Assembly (NCBI GenBank): GCA_963706595.1
Contig: OY970166.1
Location: 2,048,001-2,112,000 of the forward strand
Direction: 5' to 3'
Source: an uncultured cyanobacterium
Lineage (GTDB): Bacteria; Cyanobacteriota; Cyanobacteriia; Cyanobacteriales; Nostocaceae
Length of the DNA stretch: 64,000 nucleotides
A program made the translations under genes and the position numbers. Below, piece by piece: positions 23,354-31,125 of this stretch. Every line of letters begins with the position of its first letter. The first letter of the stretch is position 1. The notes below the pieces were generated by a model. It worked only from the letters and a program-made list of their open reading frames with translations, did no database searches and was not told the DNA's origin.

Positions 23354-25003
23354 ATGCTGAATTTAGTTTCAGCTAGCTGGGAAAGTGTTAGCACTCAACC
23401 AGTTAAGCAAAACCGGATTATTGCGGCCATTGACATGGGAACTAATTCCCTGCACATGGTAGTAGTCAAGATTGACCCGACGTTACCATCGTTTCGGATG
23501 ATCGCCAAAGAAAAAGAAACCGTCAGACTGGGTAATCGTGACATCGCCACTGGAGAACTGAAACCAGAAATCATTGACAAGGCGATTACCGCCCTCAGAC
23601 GCTTTCAAGAAGTTGCTAAAACAGCTAATGCAGAAACCATCATTGCTGTCGCCACTAGCGCTGTGCGAGAAGCCCCGAATGGCAGAGATTTTCTGCACAG
23701 AGTAGAATTGGAGTTAGGTTTAAGCGTTGACTTGATTTCAGGTCAAGAAGAAGCCCGACGCATCTACTTAGGTGTACTTTCGGGGATGGAATTTAATAAC
23801 CAACCCCATATCGTCATTGATATTGGCGGTGGTTCTACAGAGTTAATTTTGGGCGATAGTCAAGAAGCCCGCAGTCTCACCAGTACAAAAGTTGGTGCAG
23901 TGAGACTCACCAGCGAGTTTATTACTAACGACCCCATCAGTGATACTGAGTTTCAGTACCTAGAAGCCTACACACGCGGGATGCTGGAACGTTCTGTGGA
24001 AGATGTGCTAGGAAATATCCAGTTGGGGGAATCTCCCCGTTTGGTGGGAACCTCTGGTACGATTGAAACCCTGGCGATGATTCATGCACGGGAAAATTTA
24101 GATACTGTTCCTTCGACTCTCAATGGCTACGAGTTCAGCCTCAAGGACTTGCAGAATTGGGTCTATCGCTTGCGAAAAATGACTTATTCGGAGATTTCTC
24201 ATATCCCCGGTATGCCAGATAAGCGGTCAGAAGTGATCTTGGCTGGGGCTGTGATTTTACAGTCAGCCATGAGTTTGTTAGGTGTGGAATCTGTGACGGT
24301 GTGCGGGCGCGCCCTCCGGGAAGGCGTGATTGTGGATTGGATGTTAGCCCACGGGTTGATTGAAGATCGACTGCGCTATCAAGGTTCAGTGCGTGAACGC
24401 AGTGTGCTGAAACAGGCTGATAAGTATCATATCAATTTAGAACATAGCGATCGCGTGGCTTTATTTGCCTTGAGTTTATTTGACCAAACCCAAGGGAAAT
24501 TACATAACTGGGGAGTCAACGAACGACAAATGTTATGGGCGGCGGCGATATTACATAATTGTGGGCATTATATTAGCCATTCGTCTCACCACAAGCATTC
24601 CTATTATTTAGTTCGCAATAGTGAATTACTTGGCTATACCGAAACCGAGATTGAAATTATTGCTAATTTAGCCCGTTATCACCGTAAATCACAGCCCAAG
24701 AAAAAACACGAAAATTACCGAAACTTGCTGAGTAAACAGCATCGCCAATTGGTTAGTCAATTGAGTGCAGTGTTGAGATTGGCAGTGGCATTAGATCGGC
24801 GACAAATTGGTGCGATCGCCCGCGTAGAATGTGACTACAATCCTGATAGCCAGGAATTTAAAATGTTGATTTTCCCCTCTAAACCTGATGATGACTGTGC
24901 TTTAGAACTTTGGAGTTTAGATTATAAAAAACCAGTGTTTGAAGATGAATTTAAAGTCAAGTTGATGGCTAATTTAAAACAGACTCCTATCACTAGAATA
25001 TAG
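23354..25003 (+). CDS. ppx: Exopolyphosphatase Ppx/GppA
   Basis: AAIDMGTNS, ATSAVREA, DIGGGSTE, ALREG, C-terminal HD-like domain. Confidence 0.95.
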   Translation: MLNLVSASWESVSTQPVKQNRIIAAIDMGTNSLHMVVVKIDPTLPSFRMIAKEKETVRLGNRDIATGELKPEIIDKAITALRRFQEVAKTANAETIIAVATSAVREAPNGRDFLHRVELELGLSVDLISGQEEARRIYLGVLSGMEFNNQPHIVIDIGGGSTELILGDSQEARSLTSTKVGAVRLTSEFITNDPISDTEFQYLEAYTRGMLERSVEDVLGNIQLGESPRLVGTSGTIETLAMIHARENLDTVPSTLNGYEFSLKDLQNWVYRLRKMTYSEISHIPGMPDKRSEVILAGAVILQSAMSLLGVESVTVCGRALREGVIVDWMLAHGLIEDRLRYQGSVRERSVLKQADKYHINLEHSDRVALFALSLFDQTQGKLHNWGVNERQMLWAAAILHNCGHYISHSSHHKHSYYLVRNSELLGYTETEIEIIANLARYHRKSQPKKKHENYRNLLSKQHRQLVSQLSAVLRLAVALDRRQIGAIARVECDYNPDSQEFKMLIFPSKPDDDCALELWSLDYKKPVFEDEFKVKLMANLKQTPITRI

Positions 25004-25181
25004 TTTGAAAAAGAGGCAAGGGAGCAGGTAGCAGGGAGCAGGGGGGAAAGTCCAGATGGGGATTCGACCCCATCAGGACGAGAAGCACTTTGTAGAAGTG
25101 GGGGACTCAGACCCATTTTCCGCTCCGCTTCACGGCAGGAGGAAGGTGTTATTTCCCCCTGCCCCTGCCTCTTCGTTAAAC
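25003..25181. repeat. Dispersed palindromic repeat or MITE-like element
   Basis: AAGAGGCAAGGGAGCAGG...CCTGCCCCTGCCTCTT inverted ends. Confidence 0.45.
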
Positions 25182-25188
25182 AATAAGT

Positions 25189-25220
25189 GTAGGTGCGTTA
25201 CACTGTGTTACCGCACCTAC
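25189..25220. terminator. GTAG-type hairpin between convergent genes
   Basis: GTAGGTGCGTTACA...TGTTACCGCACCTAC. Confidence 0.5.
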
Positions 25221-25289
25221 CAAACCATCTAAAATTTGACAATTGATTGCCGCAACTGCGTTAAAAAAAACAATTTCTCTTATTTGCCA

Positions 25290-25772
25290 TCACGGCTGGT
25301 TTAGTCCCTCTAATTTAATTTCTGCTTCATTAATTTGCTTTTGGATTAACCTAAGTCTCGCCTCGGCTATTTGTTTTTGTACTTCTAATAGTTCAGTTTC
25401 TTTATTAATACGATTCATTCTAACTTTATGTGACGTAGTGCGTCCTGGTTGAAAAATTAATCCCATATAAACAGTGAGATTTTTAGCATCAAGAGTATTC
25501 AGTCCCACTGACATATTTAAACCAAAGTCATTCTCTGTATTCACTGGAGTATTGAGAGGATGATCTAGTGGATAGATGTTTGGGACATTAAACTCATTAA
25601 TATTCTCAGCATTATTTTGGTTGGGAGTTTGAAAAACATTATTAAAATTTCCATTGACGGTAGAATCGCTGTTAGTACTTTGTTGTGAAAAAGCAGGTTG
25701 ATTTACCAGTGTTTCGGCGATTAAGAGCTTTAAAATGGCAGTAGGCAATAAAATTGCTAATCTTCGTAACAT
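25290..25772 (-). CDS. Secreted protein: N/Q-rich curlin-like segment, amphipathic beta-hairpin and coiled coil
   Basis: Signal-like N-terminus ending PAFS|Q; STVNGNFNNVFQTPNQNN; FGLNMSVGL..LTVYMGLIF; heptad-rich C-terminus. Confidence 0.7.
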   Translation of the reverse strand: MLRRLAILLPTAILKLLIAETLVNQPAFSQQSTNSDSTVNGNFNNVFQTPNQNNAENINEFNVPNIYPLDHPLNTPVNTENDFGLNMSVGLNTLDAKNLTVYMGLIFQPGRTTSHKVRMNRINKETELLEVQKQIAEARLRLIQKQINEAEIKLEGLNQP

Positions 25773-25971
25773 GATTTGTTTACATTTACTAGTCTTACAG
25801 ATTTAACTTCAGCTATAACTTTTGTACTTGAATATCAGAGGATAGATCATCAAAATTGTTCTCCCGACCTATATTAAGGAAAGTAGATTGAATTTTTTGT
25901 AAATTAGATTACCGATATAAAAGTCCTAAATCATTTATGAACTTCTTCCCTGAATTTTACACCTTGCTACA

Positions 25972-26230
25972 TATAGGAATCTGATTTGATTATTGAAAAA
26001 ATCTAAGTATATGTAGTGGCGTGACAAGGCTAAAATGTTGCAATAGATTTTTGAGAAAATCGAGATAAATCAATGTTTTCTGCTTTTTACCTAATGCACT
26101 ATTTTAAGCTTGCCACGCTAGTAGGGTGTGTTATGGCTTTAGCCTAACGCACCGTCTTCTGTGGTCTTGGTGTCGTACTCTCCTCGATAACACACCCTAC
26201 TTGTGTTTCATAAATCAAAATCGAATACAT
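25972..26230. mobile_element. Nested elements: outer MITE containing a REP-like hairpin and an IS630 MITE
   Basis: TATAGGAATCTGATTTGATT...AATCAAAATCGAATAC degenerate inverted ends. Confidence 0.5.
26016..26121. mobile_element. IS630-derived MITE copy 6 (106 bp)
   Basis: Same unit as 2511-2616, inserted at the TA of TG-TA-GGGTGTGTTA. Confidence 0.9.
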
Positions 26231-26233
26231 TAT

Positions 26234-26671
26234 TTAGTCAACATAAATAATTAAGGTATTGGCGATATTACCATTACCTGTATTTTCCTGGGTAACTCGT
26301 GTATTGATTCCAATTAATTCCAGCTTAAATGCAGATGTAATTGGAGTATAACTACCCATAATATCTATAGTATTTTTACCTTTCTTTAAAACAGGAGAAA
26401 GATTAATCTGAGTGCTATTGTTTGTAAATTTAGCAATTATTATACCATTAAGTTTAATGTTTCCTGTTAACAGGTCAGTGTGTCGAGAACCCCTAATTTT
26501 CAGTAAATACTTTTCTTTAAATTCATCAATACTTAAATTAATAATTGTTGTTTGTGTCGTTTCTTTTAGTTGAGTTGGATTAGCAAAAGCCAAATATGGT
26601 ATTATAATAGACATACTCATTGCTAAAAAACCAGAATAGCAAATCGCAGTTAATATTTGCTGAAAATTCAT
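26234..26671 (-). CDS. Secreted hypothetical protein, probable beta-sandwich
   Basis: Signal peptide ending LAFA; INLSPVLKKGKNTIDI jelly-roll-like motif; C-terminal TQENTGNGN. Confidence 0.7.
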   Translation of the reverse strand: MNFQQILTAICYSGFLAMSMSIIIPYLAFANPTQLKETTQTTIINLSIDEFKEKYLLKIRGSRHTDLLTGNIKLNGIIIAKFTNNSTQINLSPVLKKGKNTIDIMGSYTPITSAFKLELIGINTRVTQENTGNGNIANTLIIYVD

Positions 26672-26787
26672 ATTTATTTCCAACGATTGTTTTTTATATT
26701 ATATGAGCTAAAAAATAAATGAATTTGTAGGGGTTTAACAGTGGTATGGTAAACCCTTACTAAATAAAAGATTGAATGTACTAATTT

Positions 26788-27162
26788 TTAGGGGTGAAAA
26801 TTTTTTGGTGTTTTGACATTAACGGGAACAACTATGCTACTTTTAACAGTTGGTCCACTCATACCAGTGCTATTACGCCCATTATTTCTAATTTCGTGAC
26901 GAACCTCTTGATGCTGTCTCACACGCCCATTATTACTAGTATTTACTTGTACTGCTGTAGAAGAACTGGTATTTCCTGTACAGGATTTTGGACTGTGCAT
27001 TTCCACATTAGACGTTTGTGTGGCTGGTGTGTTAGACATATTAAGCTGAACGCCAACATGGGACATAACACACTGTGCTACTGCGGGTTTAGTAGCAAAA
27101 GTAGCCACGGTTAAACACATACCAAAAGATAAAAAACCAAGATATAAATCTTTACGTTTCAT
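26788..27162 (-). CDS. Secreted hypothetical protein, N/S/T/Q-rich with predicted beta-strands
   Basis: Signal peptide ending PAVA|Q; two Cys in the mature part; GGTG RBS. Confidence 0.7.
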   Translation of the reverse strand: MKRKDLYLGFLSFGMCLTVATFATKPAVAQCVMSHVGVQLNMSNTPATQTSNVEMHSPKSCTGNTSSSTAVQVNTSNNGRVRQHQEVRHEIRNNGRNSTGMSGPTVKSSIVVPVNVKTPKNFHP

Positions 27163-27185
27163 CTAAATCACCCCATATTTGGACG

Positions 27186-27530
27186 TTAATAACAAGATAC
27201 GGAAACCGTACTACTTTGAGTGCTGTGTCTATTATTTCTGCTAACTTGTGTTGTTTCTTGTTTAACAACACTACCTGATTTTTTACAGGAATTTCTCCAA
27301 AAAATATTGAAATGATCAAGGGGACGATTTCTATTTATATAGCTGCTTCTGGAAGGAACAGTTAGCTTTGTATTTCCAGTGTCTATATAAAAATTTCCGT
27401 GGGAATCTTGATTGATTCTCACACGCCCTGCTTGCATATCTATTTCACTTGCTTGGGTAACAACAGGTAGAAATAAGGTGAAGAAAATTAGAAGGGAGAA
27501 AAATTTGTACATAAGCATGGGAAATCCCAA
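27186..27530 (-). CDS. Secreted hypothetical protein
   Basis: Signal peptide ending TQA|S; C-terminal S/T/Q-rich segment bracketed by two Cys. Confidence 0.65.
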   Translation of the reverse strand: MGFPMLMYKFFSLLIFFTLFLPVVTQASEIDMQAGRVRINQDSHGNFYIDTGNTKLTVPSRSSYINRNRPLDHFNIFWRNSCKKSGSVVKQETTQVSRNNRHSTQSSTVSVSCY

Positions 27531-27536
27531 GTTAAA

Positions 27537-27580
27537 GAAAAAGTTTAGGGTAAAGTTATGTTGTGTCAGCTTTACCCTAA
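27537..27580 (-). terminator. Intrinsic terminator after the first gene of the secreted-protein cluster
   Basis: 11-bp stem TTAGGGTAAAG/CTTTACCCTAA followed by ACTTTTTCTTT on the minus strand. Confidence 0.7.
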
Positions 27581-27641
27581 TAATTTAGCACCCGAAACTC
27601 AATCTAAGTCAAGGAAAACTGCCAATTATTCTGAATGATGA

Positions 27642-27983
27642 TTAATGATTATATCTGCCTCTATCATGGTGATTGTGTTGTTGGTCTCTTTGATGAATTT
27701 GTTGGTTGTTTTGAGAAGCTTTGTTGACACAAAGATTACCATTACCAAAAGTGTCACACTCTTGACCTATAGCTTGACCGTTAGCGCCATTACCACCAGC
27801 GTTTTTATTGACATTTAGATGGTTTTGTGTAGCATTATTAATACTGCGGTTGTGATTGCCAGTGGTAACACTTCTTTGGTTGATAATTTGAGCGTTATCA
27901 ACATGACTAGGCCGAGCATTAGCAGGAGTAGACGCAAGCGCGATCGCACTTAAAGTGAATAGACCGATGATAAACTTATTCAT
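27642..27983 (-). CDS. Secreted N/Q/G-rich protein with two curlin-like repeats (candidate amyloid subunit)
   Basis: Signal peptide ending PANA|R; repeats aa30-54 and aa68-92. Confidence 0.75.
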   Translation of the reverse strand: MNKFIIGLFTLSAIALASTPANARPSHVDNAQIINQRSVTTGNHNRSINNATQNHLNVNKNAGGNGANGQAIGQECDTFGNGNLCVNKASQNNQQIHQRDQQHNHHDRGRYNH

Positions 27984-28357
27984 GGAAAACTCTACAGTTT
28001 TGAATGGTTAATCTACCCACTAGCTCTGATTAGCTTGAAGCAGTTGGGTTTGCTAGCTTTTTGTCTCAGCTATAAATAACCATAAGAGTATTTTTAGTCC
28101 TGATCTGCTTACAAAGTACAAAGTCTCCGAAGCTTTTTGGTTGATGGCTGACATTTTTTCAAAGATTTAATAACTTTAATCAAAAAGTCATCTACAATTG
28201 TGATTTAAAAATTAACTTAATGATAAAGTTTATTAATACTCTGAGTATAATCTTCTTTCCTATTCATCAAGATCCTCAGCGAACACAAAAGTACAAAAAT
28301 CGGTAAAATTAGGTAAAGTAATTTTGGCATTGGTTAAACAAAGGCATCAGCAAACTC

Positions 28358-29374
28358 ATGCAACTGAAACTCAGTGCATCTAAATTTCCCTTCGCTCCTT
28401 TACTCTTAATCGCCCCTTTTTTCTTCTGGGGAACGGCAATGGTGGCGATGAAAGGAGTCATACCCCACACTACACCCCTATTTATGGCAGGTGTGCGATT
28501 GCTACCAGCTGGGGTGTTAATTTTGATTGCGGCAGTATTGATGGATAAACCCCAGCCAAAGGGTTGGTCAGCATGGCTGTGGATTATTTTATTTGCTTTG
28601 ATAGATGGGGCTTTATTTCAAGGCTTTTTGGCAGAAGGTTTAGTCAGAACTAGTGCTGGTTTAGGGTCGGTGATGATTGACTCTCAACCTTTGGCGGTGG
28701 CTTTGTTGTCGTTGTGGCTCTTTCAAGAACATATTGGTTTGTGGGGATGGCTGGGATTAGGACTGGGAGTCATCGGCATTAGTTTAATTGGTTTGCCCGA
28801 TCAGTTGATTTTGCAGTTGTTTGATGCCAACGTCAATGCAACTGTTGGTAATTGGCAAGATTTGTTTGCTAGTGGTGAATGGTTAATGTTGTTAGCCGCC
28901 CTCTCAATGGCTGCGGGAACAGTGATGATTCGGTTTGTGTGTAGACACGCTGACCCAGTAACCGCTACGGGATGGCACATGATTTTGGGGGGATTGCCGT
29001 TGTGGGGAATTTCATCTGTAACTGAATCTCAGCAGTGGCAGAATCTGGTAACATCTGAATGGATGGCTTTGGGTTATGCTACAGTTTTTGGCAGTGCGAT
29101 CGCCTATGGCTTATTTTTCTACTTTGCTTCTAGCGGTAGCCTCACCAGTCTGAGTTCTCTGACCTTTTTGACTCCCGTCTTTGCCCTATTATTTGGCAAT
29201 CTCTTTCTCTCGGAAGTTCTCAGTCCCTTGCAGTGGGTGGGAGTAGGACTGACTTTAATAAGCATTTATCTGATTAACCAGCGCGATAACTTGGCGGGAC
29301 AAAGTAACGAAGTGAGTGTGGGACAAGAAGTTAAACAGCACTCACGCGCCTTAGAAACCTCGGCTCATAAATAA
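28358..29374 (+). CDS. DMT/EamA family transporter
   Basis: About 10 TM segments; FFWGTAMVA; duplicated EamA domains. Confidence 0.9.
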   Translation: MQLKLSASKFPFAPLLLIAPFFFWGTAMVAMKGVIPHTTPLFMAGVRLLPAGVLILIAAVLMDKPQPKGWSAWLWIILFALIDGALFQGFLAEGLVRTSAGLGSVMIDSQPLAVALLSLWLFQEHIGLWGWLGLGLGVIGISLIGLPDQLILQLFDANVNATVGNWQDLFASGEWLMLLAALSMAAGTVMIRFVCRHADPVTATGWHMILGGLPLWGISSVTESQQWQNLVTSEWMALGYATVFGSAIAYGLFFYFASSGSLTSLSSLTFLTPVFALLFGNLFLSEVLSPLQWVGVGLTLISIYLINQRDNLAGQSNEVSVGQEVKQHSRALETSAHK

Positions 29375-29483
29375 ATTAGTCAGTTTCATGTTTTTTTTGT
29401 TACTTTAAAACTTAACATTTAGACATCTTGAAGTTATTGTGGAATCGATAACTTCAATGTACCTTCAGGCTGATACTGACAAT

Positions 29484-30665
29484 ATGAGGCTATCCCATTC
29501 CTCAATTCTGATTTTTACCTGTTTTACTTGCTTGGGTTTTTACCCACATCGCGCAAGTACGGCAGCATATCATCTAGCATCCCCAGAAATTGCACAAGCA
29601 AGTTCGACCACACCTGTCACCGAGAATGTTCTCAAACTCGGTAGTCAAGGGTCCTATGTTCAAATCATGCAAATTCAATTAAAGGATTTAGGATACTACG
29701 ATAGTGTGACAGATGGAGTATATGGGCAAAATACGCAAAATGCTGTAATTCAGTTTCAGAAATCCCAAAATTTAGAAAGAAGAGATGGAGTTGCTGATCA
29801 TGCAACTAGGCTCAGTCTGCAAACAGCTTGGGCAGAAAAAAATCCCTTTGCGCCCTTTGCTCGCGTCGCCTCCGCATCTACTACTCCAACTGTCCAGAAA
29901 ACTGAGCAGTCACAAGCCAGCGAGCGAGGGTTTATTTGGTGGTCATTATTGGGTCTAGGAATTCTAGGAACTATTGGCGCAGTCCTGTTTGGCATGAAAT
30001 GGTTCAGTCAGGTCAAAGACCAGCCAGAATCTACTCCTACCCAATTGAAAGCTTTGAGTCCTGGTGGCGAAAACTTAGTGCAGCCGCCGTTGCAAGAGTT
30101 GGAAACTGAATCAAAACCGCAGGAAAATCATGTATTGGCCATCAGTCCACAAACAGCAACAGCCTCTATTACCACAACAGTATCACCAGATGAAATGACT
30201 TCGCCTCTGACCAAACTGAATATTGTTGATGAATTGATTCAGGACTTACGCGGTAGCAATCGCCCGAAACGGCGCAGGGCTATTTGGGATTTGGGTCAGC
30301 AAGGTGACTCACGAGCTATTCAGCCCCTAGTAGACTTGATGATTGATGCTGATTCTCAACAACGCAGTTTAATTTTGGCGGCTTTGGCAGAAATTAACTC
30401 GCGCGCACTCACACCCATGAACCGTGCTTTGGCAATTTCATTGCAAGATGAAAGTCCACAAGTGCGACAAAATGCTATCCGTGACCTGACTCGCGTTTAT
30501 GACATGATGATTCAAATGAGCCAGATGTTAGTCCACGCGCTGGAGGACCCGGATGTTAATGTGCAAACTACGGCAAAGTATGCTCTGACTCAGATGAATA
30601 AAATGCGGATTTTACCCGATCAACAGAGTCTACCAAAAGGTCATCACCAAGAGGCAGAACAGTAA
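29484..30665 (+). CDS. Peptidoglycan-binding, TM and HEAT-repeat protein
   Basis: LKLGSQG..Q.QLKDLGYY..DGVYG..T..AV..FQ (PG_binding_1); TM FIWWSLLGLGILG; C-terminal HEAT repeats. Confidence 0.85.
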   Translation: MRLSHSSILIFTCFTCLGFYPHRASTAAYHLASPEIAQASSTTPVTENVLKLGSQGSYVQIMQIQLKDLGYYDSVTDGVYGQNTQNAVIQFQKSQNLERRDGVADHATRLSLQTAWAEKNPFAPFARVASASTTPTVQKTEQSQASERGFIWWSLLGLGILGTIGAVLFGMKWFSQVKDQPESTPTQLKALSPGGENLVQPPLQELETESKPQENHVLAISPQTATASITTTVSPDEMTSPLTKLNIVDELIQDLRGSNRPKRRRAIWDLGQQGDSRAIQPLVDLMIDADSQQRSLILAALAEINSRALTPMNRALAISLQDESPQVRQNAIRDLTRVYDMMIQMSQMLVHALEDPDVNVQTTAKYALTQMNKMRILPDQQSLPKGHHQEAEQ

Positions 30666-30666
30666 C

Positions 30667-31125
30667 TCATAAATATTTCAATTGGATTTGGATAACTGTA
30701 TTTGGGCCTGCTAACAAAAAAGCGGCTTCCTTGAACTTAGGAGGACTGGTGCGAACTTCTGGGTTTCTGGAAAACCCAAAGCCTTCGATGGGCATACCAA
30801 GGTTATTACGATTGAGGATTTGGTCTTTATTCTGATCATGGATAACGGCAACAGCATAACTACCCGCTTGTAAGTTATCAAAAGTCACTTTTAAAGACCC
30901 CTCGGCAATCTGGGTGCATTGCCTTTTGAATACGCGATCGCTTTTGCTGGGAAATCCTTGACTATTAGCAAATATGCTCACACAAACCTGTCCTTCTGTG
31001 TTCCGAAATCCATCAATTTCCACGGTGAGATTACCCTGAAAACTTGCCCTAGCACTGGATATCCAGGTAAAATTTCCGATAACTGCCAGTAACAGCGCAC
31101 TCAGTCCCAGTTTTTTCATCATCAT
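30667..31125 (-). CDS. DUF2141 family secreted protein
   Basis: GSYAVAVIHDQN..GMPIEGFGFSRNP. Confidence 0.9.
   Translation of the reverse strand: MMMKKLGLSALLLAVIGNFTWISSARASFQGNLTVEIDGFRNTEGQVCVSIFANSQGFPSKSDRVFKRQCTQIAEGSLKVTFDNLQAGSYAVAVIHDQNKDQILNRNNLGMPIEGFGFSRNPEVRTSPPKFKEAAFLLAGPNTVIQIQLKYL

Follow-up and report, generated by a model that had tools for sequence, protein, structure and literature searches.

A conserved cassette of small secreted proteins in filamentous cyanobacteria as a candidate curli-like fibre system outside the curli family

Curli of E. coli and Salmonella are encoded by csgBAC and csgDEFG, where CsgA is the major and CsgB the minor curlin, CsgC an Ig-like periplasmic chaperone and CsgG the channel, and curli subunits carry 4-22 repeats of about 22 residues. 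The curli literature gives the minimal repeat as X6QXGX2NX10 (PMC3521004). A filament confined to cyanobacteria, the cyanobacterial tubular (CT) pilus of Microcystis aeruginosa, is reported to be built from a small signal-peptide pilin, MrpC, with two long beta-hairpins; the pilin gene adjoins genes for a pilin-like paralogue and for beta-rich adhesins or surface proteins, and homologues of the cluster are reported in Nostocales (PMC12397347). In Synechococcus elongatus PCC 7942, one operon is reported to encode EbfG1-4, four small secreted proteins in which no known domain is recognised; C-DAG and TEM assays show amyloid-like fibrils for some of them, and they bear a double-glycine motif for secretion and require the C39-peptidase transporter PteB (PMC9981879).

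Here we analysed a 64,000-nucleotide stretch of the genome of an uncultured cyanobacterium of the Nostocaceae (the window) and describe five co-oriented minus-strand ORFs at 25290..27983 in its ORF list (g1 to g5, Table 1), flanked by Ppx-GppA (E 7e-80) on one side and EamA (E 9e-50) on the other and lying in AT-rich DNA (GC 0.29-0.37 over the cluster vs 0.42-0.48 in the flanking genes). In all five N-termini, small-x-small sites come after a hydrophobic segment (hydropathy over 12 residues 1.9-2.9), which makes them Sec-like by our own crude heuristic rather than by SignalP, with the basic n-region missing from that of g4, and Q, N, S and T together account for 34-43% of the mature parts. ORFs, Sec-like N-termini, flanks and base composition all bear out the preliminary description of this locus, in which the 145 aa given for gene 4 correspond to the length from its internal ATG. 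In pairwise comparisons of four congeners, dN/dS amounts to 0.15-0.58 for g1-g5 and to 0.07-0.09 for ppx, indicating purifying selection on all five genes and ruling out a gene-call artefact in AT-rich DNA, and relatives in other genera exist for every one of them.

Table 1. Features of the cassette and their coordinates in the window
Feature	Coordinates	Strand	Description
g1	27642..27983	-	113 aa; signal peptide, two ~38-residue Gln/Asn-rich strand-turn-strand repeats
g2	27186..27530	-	114 aa from TTG; 110 aa from ATG at 27518
g3	26788..27162	-	124 aa; secreted, Ser/Asn/Thr/Val-rich
g4	26234..26683	-	149 aa from TTG, 145 aa from internal ATG
inverted repeat	26115..26206		20-nt arms, 90% complementary, 52-nt loop
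g5	25290..25772	-	160 aa; signal peptide, Asn-rich linker, conserved segment, probable C-terminal helix
g1/EamA divergent intergenic region	27984..28357		presumed cassette promoter region

Searched against Pfam and NCBIfam, the five proteins yield no match at or near a family cut-off; among PDB sequences, profiles A1-A4 and g5 meet signal-peptide or chance matches only, the rest of the window's genome holds no paralogue of g1-g5 by tblastn, and hhalign among the g1, g2 and g3 families detects likeness confined to the signal peptides. The listed titles and abstract beginnings from the literature on cyanobacterial curli or functional amyloids and on the Nostoc exoproteome or sheath leave the cassette unmentioned. 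The preliminary description had further noted a G-N-x-N turn motif shared by three of the genes, and the strings TTGNHN, TFGNGN, NTGNGN and VNGNFN are indeed all present, but they are no evidence of kinship; the string is a conserved repeat turn only in g1 and falls in a beta-sandwich loop in g4 and in the N-terminal linker in g5. The g1-g5 proteins belong to no described family, and together they are the one-subunit version of a conserved, unnamed cassette common to many filamentous cyanobacteria, of which an undescribed curli-like fibre system is the most likely reading.

The conservation of this cassette was followed with our own HMMs in 30 loci from 28 other cyanobacterial genomes, picked for holding the g4 family. 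One to seven g1-family genes followed colinearly by the g2, g3 and g4 families are found in 20 of the 30, with the g2 family always lying between g1 and g3 in these; three further loci hold the g1, g3 and g4 families without g2, two the g1 and g4 families only, and one the g4 family alone. In the remaining four, two Ala/Ser-rich secreted proteins replace g1-g3 beside the g4 family, suggesting that g4 is unspecific to the g1 family. The g5 family follows the g4 family in 8/30 loci and is an optional fifth member. The gene-neighbourhood check across cyanobacteria proposed in the preliminary description hence finds a syntenic module, and the objection that the genes might not be syntenic elsewhere falls away. 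Among 61 relatives, which are kin rather than independent genomes, 16 carry both the g1 and g4 families, 2 only g4, 5 only g1 and 38 neither. Within the genus, nine sites comprise four full cassettes, one partial cassette (g1-g3 only), three empty sites and one occupied by an IS, so that the cassette is dispensable and strain-variable at this level.

A fibre-subunit role for g1 gains support from a predicted subunit anatomy that combines two repeats, tandem copies in relatives and an in-register model. The repeats agree at 12 of 35 positions and turn at TGNHN and FGNGN, with a Cys pair in the second and a basic, His-rich tail behind it. The family (alignments A1, A5 and A6) comprises 98 cluster representatives among 1.84 billion proteins (mature-part profile, E <= 1e-3), nearly all of 105-125 aa, with the profile match beginning near residue 25; Q makes up 14%, N 11% and G 10% of the mature parts. 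Family members occur as tandem copies, up to seven in a row and with twelve matches in one genome, as would suit a structural protein needed in bulk. A quick tree covering 64 rows of the g1 family was built from few columns, by a quick search and with SH-aLRT support only; in it, the g2-adjacent copies form lineages common to several genera and the distal copies are lineage-specific duplicates, a pattern of sequence relationships reminiscent of a minor/major subunit split.

AF2 models g1 at low confidence (pLDDT 55) with strands at 31-41, 46-59, 69-79 and 84-97, no helix, and a tail unstructured from residue 98. Modelling of homo-stacks, which the preliminary description had proposed, was performed with four copies in ESMFold2 and yielded scores of 0.53, 0.62 and 0.62 vs 0.02 for the best control, with at least 86% contact agreement between runs and a partner pLDDT of at least 72. 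The top inter-subunit contacts (90-52, 91-53, 72-34, 89-51, 82-44, 71-33, 87-49, 83-45, 96-58, 73-35 and 70-32) all share an offset of 38, so that the second repeat of each subunit comes to lie on the first repeat of its neighbour, and this constancy implies parallel in-register stacking in which strands cover strands and turns cover turns. Of proteins solved as same-chain pairs, 20 of 30 attain this score mark, against 1 of 23 for those with single-chain structures; these counts hold only roughly for g1, which was modelled with a custom alignment and in four copies; a passing score in such multi-copy modelling is support for binding rather than proof of it. The predictor may also stack Q/N-rich repeats by memory of solved beta-solenoids, and the modelled contacts are equally compatible with cross-beta hydrogen bonding, running along the stack, and with bonding inside each hairpin. 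With these qualifications, the models predict a curli-like fibre formed by head-to-tail polymerisation of g1.

The best-defined of the accompanying proteins is g4, which in the AF2 model (mean pLDDT 77.6) consists of an N-terminal signal/anchor segment and a C-terminal Ig/FN3-like beta-sandwich of about 105 residues with nine strands; residues 44-149 exceed pLDDT 90, in keeping with the beta-sandwich accessory predicted earlier. In relatives a Ser/Thr/Gln-rich linker of 20-130 residues separates the two parts (alignment A2). The fold matches generic Ig/FN3-like structures only, and neither VIA (best Z 6.4) nor Foldseek points to a nameable family; a search for longer or fused forms of the domain found none, which is weak evidence. 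The best Foldseek match is the pilin AggA (E 7.8e-4, but TM 0.18, hence a weak resemblance), and the cassette shares with chaperone-usher pili such as AAF/I AggA and Csu, whose Ig-like pilins are joined by donor-strand complementation, a row of small secreted proteins and an Ig-like member, but differs from them in having no usher or PapD-like chaperone family and in a g1 that is not Ig-like.

For g2, the start is probably the internal ATG, because congeners align from there, and the alignment of 14 relatives (A4) features a conserved, hairpin-like N-terminal segment, (D/E)-I-D-(I/M)-Q-x-G-x-x-R-(V/I), and a conserved C-terminal loop, Cys...SST-x-S-C. The g3 protein is the best-conserved member of the cassette within the genus (dN/dS 0.19-0.25) and has 82 relatives in a collection of 5.8 billion proteins, all unnamed or 'hypothetical' and none with a Pfam domain; its cysteines C31, right after the signal peptide, and C61 are invariant (alignment A3). 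A lipoprotein assignment for g3 was rejected, there being no consistent lipobox before the invariant Cys across that alignment. In g5, a segment running V-N-T-E-N-D-F-G...Q-P-G-R-T is highly conserved (48 invariant columns in nine sequences, A7) and, as read from the sequence, likely forms two strands ahead of a putative amphipathic C-terminal helix of about 35 residues. Searches of Pfam, NCBIfam and PDB give no match for g2 or g5, and the ESM Atlas returns only unnamed cyanobacterial clusters for g3 and g5. Minor-subunit roles for g2 and g3, and an anchor or pore role for g5, are conjectures drawn from position and composition.

Sequence comparisons refute membership of the curli family. Curlin_rpt (PF07012) matches none of g1-g5 at E <= 1, none of 25 g1-family members at E <= 1 or of 88 at E <= 0.1, and nothing in the window's whole genome at E <= 1, with the E. 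coli positive control detected. The minimal curli repeat occurs four times in CsgA and five times in CsgB of E. coli, used as controls, vs not once in g1 or in g2-g5, and at least once in 10 of the 98 g1-family representatives. Against single-sequence templates of limited sensitivity, hhalign gives the g1 family (A5) a probability of 0.2% to CsgA and 0.04% to CsgB, and the g4 family (A2) one of 0.5% to CsgC. No match to the CsgE, CsgF or CsgG families is found in g2-g5, confirming the reported absence of csgG from the cluster, and the cassette lacks a gene for an outer-membrane channel. As for the Fap amyloids (FapA-F), with their FapC-type repeats and FapF outer-membrane barrel, searches of g1-g5 against Pfam-A and NCBIfam, whichever Fap models these include, give no hit. 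The window's genome does hold one CsgG-family gene, which lies 3.2 Mb from the cassette with CRISPR type III genes next to it; a role for CsgG as channel of the cassette was rejected for want of co-occurrence, the family being found in 3 of 16 genomes with the g1 and g4 families vs 8 of 45 others, and in none of three congeners bearing the full cassette.

The resemblance to curli lies in design: g1 is predicted to be Sec-exported, is Gln/Asn/Gly-rich and has strand-turn-strand repeats with a G-x-G-N-type turn, its repeats are modelled to stack in register between subunits, it adjoins small secreted accessory genes of which one encodes an Ig-like beta-sandwich, and in relatives the proximal subunit lineage is distinct from the amplified distal copies. 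Unlike curli, g1 has two repeats of about 38 residues rather than 4-22 of about 22, and the cassette has neither CsgE, CsgF and CsgG nor any sequence or profile similarity to the system. The cassette would work like curli from outside the curli family, the fibre itself being a prediction of the models and its amyloid nature and extracellular location conjectural. To EbfG it is likened by its row of small secreted cyanobacterial proteins without known domains, and is distinguished from it, by description rather than by sequence, through Sec-type N-termini and the lack of a nearby transporter or peptidase gene.

We favour, at about even confidence, a model where g1 polymerises into a likely curli-like beta fibre beyond the cytoplasmic membrane and g2-g5 likely serve as its minor, chaperoning or anchoring parts. 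Each g1 repeat would form a strand of about 11 residues, a G-N-x-N turn and a strand of about 14 residues, and with repeat 2 placed on the next subunit's repeat 1 at the offset of 38, a chain of subunits would run as one continuous stack. The g2 and g3 proteins, each with a conserved Cys pair, could nucleate or cap the fibre or serve as adaptors; g4 might keep subunits soluble or tether the fibre through its N-terminal segment, in which tethering the long Ser/Thr-rich linker of its relatives may join; and g5, with its hairpin and amphipathic helix, could anchor the structure in the envelope. Weighing against this model are the window's lone subunit gene with just two repeats, the low-confidence g1 monomer, the dispensability of the cassette and the partnering of g4 with unrelated proteins in four loci.

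A more specific formulation, to which we lend somewhat less than even confidence, is a curli-independent cyanobacterial fibre whose two-rung Gln/Asn-ladder subunit forms a beta-solenoid-like filament with three or four non-homologous helpers and no dedicated outer-membrane channel, encoded on a strain-variable island in a genus of bloom-forming type. The helpers in that formulation are the two Cys-pair proteins, the Ig-like protein and the hairpin-helix protein. Should it prove correct, cyanobacteria would own a third independently evolved protein-fibre system after EbfG and the CT pilus, built to a new functional beta-fibre design, with two long rungs per subunit and end-to-end stacking; it would give a function to five protein families now without name, Pfam model or literature, and the island would set aggregation or surface properties of strains. 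Since the cassette is present or cleanly absent at the same site, natural isogenic-like strain comparisons are possible, and aggregation, sheath, biofilm, buoyancy and phage sensitivity could be compared between cassette-bearing and empty-site strains; the small size of the g1 subunit also makes it an easy subject in vitro.

The likeliest alternative, though we think it rather unlikely, is that g1-g5 are non-polymeric periplasmic or cell-wall envelope proteins that are co-regulated and merely share a Q/N/S/T-rich composition; stress, ion-binding and peptidoglycan- or outer-membrane-associated factors are examples of such proteins. With no channel in the cassette and CsgG not co-occurring, the proteins may stay periplasmic, and the low-confidence g1 monomer model, the dispensability of the cassette within the genus, the MltA murein transglycosylase (cell wall) gene adjoining it in other Nostocaceae, and the PG_binding_1 and secreted DUF2141 proteins among its window neighbours would all suit this explanation. 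Tandem arrays of up to seven near-copies and a strict two-repeat design are nevertheless unusual for soluble binders, and the in-register interface of the four-copy model is specific and scores far above controls.

A polymer of another kind, in which g1-family hairpins would pack antiparallel into a tubular or sheet-like pilus as in the CT pilus, rather than form a parallel cross-beta stack, appears improbable to us. The CT pilin is likewise a small, cyanobacteria-confined signal-peptide protein with two long beta-hairpins, comparable with the two long strand pairs that AF2 gives g1 at pLDDT 55, and its gene has as neighbours a pilin-like paralogue and the gene of a beta-rich adhesin (PMC12397347). 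The C-terminal helix-turn-helix of that pilin is however not predicted in the low-confidence g1 model, the O-GlcNAc transferase and FkbM methyltransferase genes of the CT cluster are found neither in the cassette nor in its flanks, and the constant contact offset predicts parallel, in-register packing of g1 rather than the antiparallel, double-layered CT arrangement. Moreover, the A1 profile meets solved PDB chains (E <= 10) through signal peptides only (best E 0.097), in a set that may lack the CT pilin.

It is highly improbable, in our estimate, that the g1 family consists of secreted signalling or antimicrobial (bacteriocin-like) peptides with g2-g5 as processing, immunity or carrier proteins. 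Small size, secretion, tandem duplication and fast evolution (pairwise g1 dN/dS 0.23-0.58 in the four congeners) agree with this reading, as do the patchy presence in the genus and, in several other genera, an XRE-type regulator upstream of the cassette, but Pfam and NCBIfam detect no peptidase, transporter or membrane immunity protein in the cassette, PADLOC and PHROGs give no match for g1-g5 at or near their cut-offs, and the repeat design with its predicted self-stacking is, to our knowledge, foreign to known bacteriocins. Barely credible, finally, is a highly diverged true curli (type VIII secretion) member, a reading that can draw on a similar composition and turn motif (Q...G-x-G-N...Q), a small Ig-like accessory as in CsgC and the one CsgG-family gene in the window's genome, but is already refuted, as far as sequence methods reach, by the curlin and hhalign (at most 0.5%) searches, the missing minimal repeat in g1, a rung of about 38 rather than about 22 residues, and the failure of CsgG to co-occur.

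Scans for promoters and terminators gave no excess over shuffles; in the presumed promoter region a consensus promoter scan found 9 sites vs 12.9 expected. Rfam gives no significant match in 24800-28500, and the 461-bp g4-g5 spacer contains no ORF of at least 60 aa. Just past the g4 stop, this spacer carries the inverted repeat of Table 1, a possible terminator or small dispersed repeat, whose position suggests that g5 may be its own transcription unit.

The region between ppx and eamA holds a conserved and undescribed cyanobacterial cassette in a version with a single subunit gene and with g5; its subunit candidate, g1, is not a curli subunit and yet is predicted from structural models to polymerise like one. 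Five co-oriented minus-strand ORFs (g1, followed by the accessory genes g2-g5) sit where the preliminary description had placed them, and its observation as a whole is confirmed. They are separated by spacers of 111, 23, 104 and 461 bp (g1-g2 through g4-g5), the last of which contains an inverted repeat, possibly a terminator or else a small dispersed repeat. The cassette is flanked by Ppx-GppA and EamA and, farther out, by UbiA, a PG_binding_1/HEAT protein and a DUF2141 protein, with a GC content of 0.29-0.37 across the cluster versus 0.42-0.48 in the flanks. None of the five products is matched by a Pfam, NCBIfam, PADLOC or PHROGs model, and no paralogue outside the cluster was returned by tblastn against the 5.57-Mb genome. 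By a crude heuristic of our own making, all five N-termini have small-x-small sites after a hydrophobic core, that of g4 being devoid of a basic n-region; Gln, Asn, Ser and Thr together make up 34-43% of the mature proteins, and g1, g2 and g3 contain exactly two cysteines each. In comparisons of the window with three congeners, pairwise dN/dS is 0.15-0.58 for g1-g5 versus 0.07-0.09 for ppx. Overall, g1-g5 are real genes that form one unit.

Coordinates of the cassette genes and of the inverted repeat in the window
Feature	Position	Strand	Description
g1	27642-27983	-	ORF, 113 aa
g2	27186-27530	-	ORF, 114 aa; congeners align from ATG at 27518
g3	26788-27162	-	ORF, 124 aa
g4	26234-26683	-	ORF, 149 aa from TTG, 145 aa from internal ATG
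g5	25290-25772	-	ORF, 160 aa
Inverted repeat	26115-26206		Directly after g4, within the 461-bp g4-g5 spacer; 20-nt arms, 90% complementary, 52-nt loop

With g4 as query, relatives were recovered in 18 of 61 related genomes, and 13-16 kb stretches around these and around further matches from a phylum-wide sample were collected, yielding 30 loci from 28 other genomes in which all ORFs were scanned with HMMs built from the family alignments A1-A4 (A1 for g1, A4 for g2, A3 for g3 and A2 for g4) and from two script-made ones. These loci were picked for the g4 family, which is hence present by construction, and the counts are minima, several loci stopping at contig ends. Conservation of the gene neighbourhood across cyanobacteria, put forward earlier as a check, was borne out: 20 of the 30 g4-selected loci feature colinear g1-family (one to seven tandem copies), g2, g3 and g4 families, three others hold the g1, g3 and g4 families with g2 undetectable, two have g1 and g4 only, in four g1-g3 are replaced by a pair of Ala/Ser-rich secreted proteins, and one has the g4 family alone. 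The g5 family directly follows g4 in eight loci, which overlap the other classes. When the g1-family profile was added to the g4 query across the 61 relatives, both families were found in 16 genomes and neither in 38, with the g4 family only in two (both with the Ala/Ser-rich variant) and the g1 family only in five; these genomes are kin, and the counts are hence given without a statistic.

In the four variant cassettes (locus stretches L022:7135-8526, L025:5106-6328, L027:4787-5954 and L039:4963-6180), two Ala/Ser/Val-rich secreted proteins of ~165-195 aa lie directly upstream of the g4-family gene, and the two that were tested had no Pfam match; secreted repeat proteins of two unrelated kinds therefore accompany the Ig-like g4 family. 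Genomes G015 and G035 carry additional g1-family genes, in arrays of 3-5, on separate contigs (L051:4387-5646 and L052:4386-6668); the scanned stretches, both of which stop at a contig end, yielded no accessory gene. At a more distant locus, in G059 (L014:6761-7533), ORFs of 105 and 134 aa between a g1-family pair and the g4-family gene occupy the g2/g3 position, yet are not recognised by the HMMs; they may be diverged counterparts.

Among 401 sampled genomes of the phylum, the g4-family profile gave 17 matches, all within the window's own GTDB order and distributed over six families (8/45, 4/20, 1/4, 1/2, 1/2 and 1/1), and none in the other orders sampled. The g3-family profile retrieved 82 proteins from a collection of 5.8 billion, all unnamed or 'hypothetical' and none with a Pfam domain, the named hosts being heterocystous cyanobacteria (Tolypothrix, Fischerella, Scytonema, Calothrix, Nodularia, Anabaenopsis and others). 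The mature g1-family profile matched only 98 of 1.84 billion cluster representatives at E <= 1e-3, nearly all of them 105-125 aa long with the match beginning near residue 25; one of ten looked up comes from a Leptolyngbya-like cyanobacterium.

Within the genus (11 genomes), the full cassette lies between ppx and eamA in the window and in congeners G001, G006 and G008, G005 has g1-g3 only, and ppx adjoins eamA at an empty site in G002, G003 and G010. In G009 the same site holds an IS605-type TnpB gene (L044:1702-2925; OrfB_IS605 plus a Cas12f1-like TNB domain), so the spot takes up insertions repeatedly. The ppx-eamA sites were inspected in these nine genomes, and searches for the g1 and g4 families found nothing in the remaining two, G004 and G007. 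Other genera of the Nostocaceae carry the cassette at a different place, beside PIN-domain, MltA and CemA/PxcA genes, and often with an XRE-type regulator divergent on the subunit side. Its presence or absence within the genus and its different location in these other genera indicate that the cassette moves as a unit and is dispensable. Four other genera have the XRE/Cro-type HTH regulator (~112-142 aa) next to their subunit array, either divergently upstream (L018:1758-2111, L020:2400-2738 and L050:4425-4787) or beyond a 593-aa ORF from the array (L026:11097-11525); the window's version of the cassette has none. Just past the EamA gene (window 29439-31125), the genes for the PG_binding_1/HEAT-repeat protein (408 aa) and the secreted DUF2141 protein (152 aa) are kept in all congeners examined, with or without the cassette.

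The preliminary description had read the locus as a curli-like functional amyloid or fibre system, and comparison with the curlin families went against kinship: Curlin_rpt is matched neither by g1-g5, nor by 25 or 88 family members, nor anywhere in the genome, and hhalign against Escherichia coli CsgA, CsgB and CsgC gave probabilities below 1%. The minimal curli repeat, in the form quoted by Dueholm et al. (PMC3521004), occurs four times in CsgA and five times in CsgB versus none in g1, and the rung spans ~22 residues in curli and ~38 in g1. The CsgG family is present in 11 of the 61 relatives, unrelated to cassette presence; it occurs in only 3 of the 16 genomes where the g1 and g4 families are found together and is missing from all three congeners that carry the cassette in full. 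In the window's genome it is encoded 3.2 Mb from the cassette. This sole CsgG-family gene (G000:C1:5338105-5339154, outside the window; PF03783, E 1.5e-47; 349 aa) lies between genes that look type III CRISPR-associated and short ORFs rich in repeats, as judged by eye from translations. The resemblance of the cassette to curli is functional and not genealogical, the fibre behaviour itself being predicted.

The g1 protein contains a pair of repeats, VDNAQIINQRSVTTGNHNRSINNATQNHLNVNKNA and GANGQAIGQECDTFGNGNLCVNKASQNNQQIHQRD, that agree at 12 of 35 positions, and the family core Q-x(4-6)-G-x-G-N-x(3-4)-Q recurs twice per protein, with at least two such motifs in 57 of the 98 representatives and none in CsgA and CsgB. 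A Cys pair is found in about half of family members and is lacking in the other half. The AF2 model (25 sequences) is of low confidence (pLDDT 55), its secondary structure being clean, with strands 31-41, 46-59, 69-79 and 84-97 and turns at TGNHN and FGNGN. Complex prediction for four copies of mature g1, with an alignment built in this analysis, gave scores of 0.53, 0.62 and 0.62 versus 0.02 for the best control; the score mark is met by 20 of 30 solved one-chain pairs and 1 of 23 solved single chains, counts that by the tool's own warning hold only roughly for four copies and for a user-made alignment. The runs have at least 86% of contacts in common, with a partner pLDDT of at least 72, and the predicted interface sets residues 63-101 of one copy against 26-64 of the next. 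The best contacts (90-52, 91-53, 72-34, 89-51, 82-44, 71-33, 87-49, 83-45, 96-58, 73-35 and 70-32) are all offset by 38, the repeat period, which would place repeat 2 on repeat 1 of the next subunit in parallel register, with strands matched to strands and turns to turns. Packed in this way, the subunits would form an uninterrupted curli-type stack of repeats. This geometry is drawn from four-copy contacts that do not give hydrogen-bond direction and from a predictor that may reproduce such stacks from solved structures it has learned, and the model supports polymerisation as a prediction. The earlier interpretation thus holds in part, for the conserved cassette and the predicted curli-type stacking of its subunit, but not for curli membership. 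In a quick tree of 64 g1-family rows (few columns, long branches, careful search unfinished), the g2-adjacent copy falls in lineages common to several genera and the distal copies were duplicated within single lineages. A 9-row clade (SH-aLRT 98), whose cassettes have a single subunit gene or a pair, includes the window's g1, and five of its rows, besides the window's own, come from g5-bearing loci.

Apart from signal-peptide hits, no solved chain was matched by the g1 profile. The CT pilus of Microcystis, as outlined in its report (PMC12397347), is a cyanobacterial filament whose small subunit has a signal peptide and two long hairpins, and it offers a precedent for a filament of this kind, but its pilin has a C-terminal helix-turn-helix that g1 lacks, it has glycosylation genes that the cassette lacks, and the predicted packing of g1 is parallel, unlike that of the CT pilus. 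The EbfG proteins of Synechococcus are described as having a double-glycine leader and relying on a C39 transporter (PMC9981879), unlike g1-g5 with their Sec-type N-termini. Full-text literature searches, judged by titles and abstract openings, returned no paper on the cassette.

In g4, AF2 confidently predicts a nine-strand beta-sandwich at residues 44-149 (pLDDT above 90), for which Foldseek (best E 7.8e-4 at TM 0.18) and a structural search against representatives (best Z 6.4) returned generic Ig/FN3-like domains only, so that it cannot be given a family name; its relatives carry a Ser/Thr/Gln-rich linker of 20-130 residues between signal peptide and sandwich domain. Relatives of g2 have in common a (D/E)IDIQ-G-R-V segment at the N-terminus and a Cys...SSTT-S-C loop at the C-terminus. 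In the g3 family two cysteines are invariant and a P-V-x-V tail is conserved, and kinship among the g1, g2 and g3 families was not detectable. By position, export signals and analogy, g2 and g3 may act as nucleator, cap or adaptor, g4 as a chaperone or tether, and g5 as a putative envelope anchor. The g5 family is strongly conserved (48 invariant columns in nine sequences), and as read from sequence g5 features a VNTENDFG...QPGRT segment followed by an amphipathic helix.
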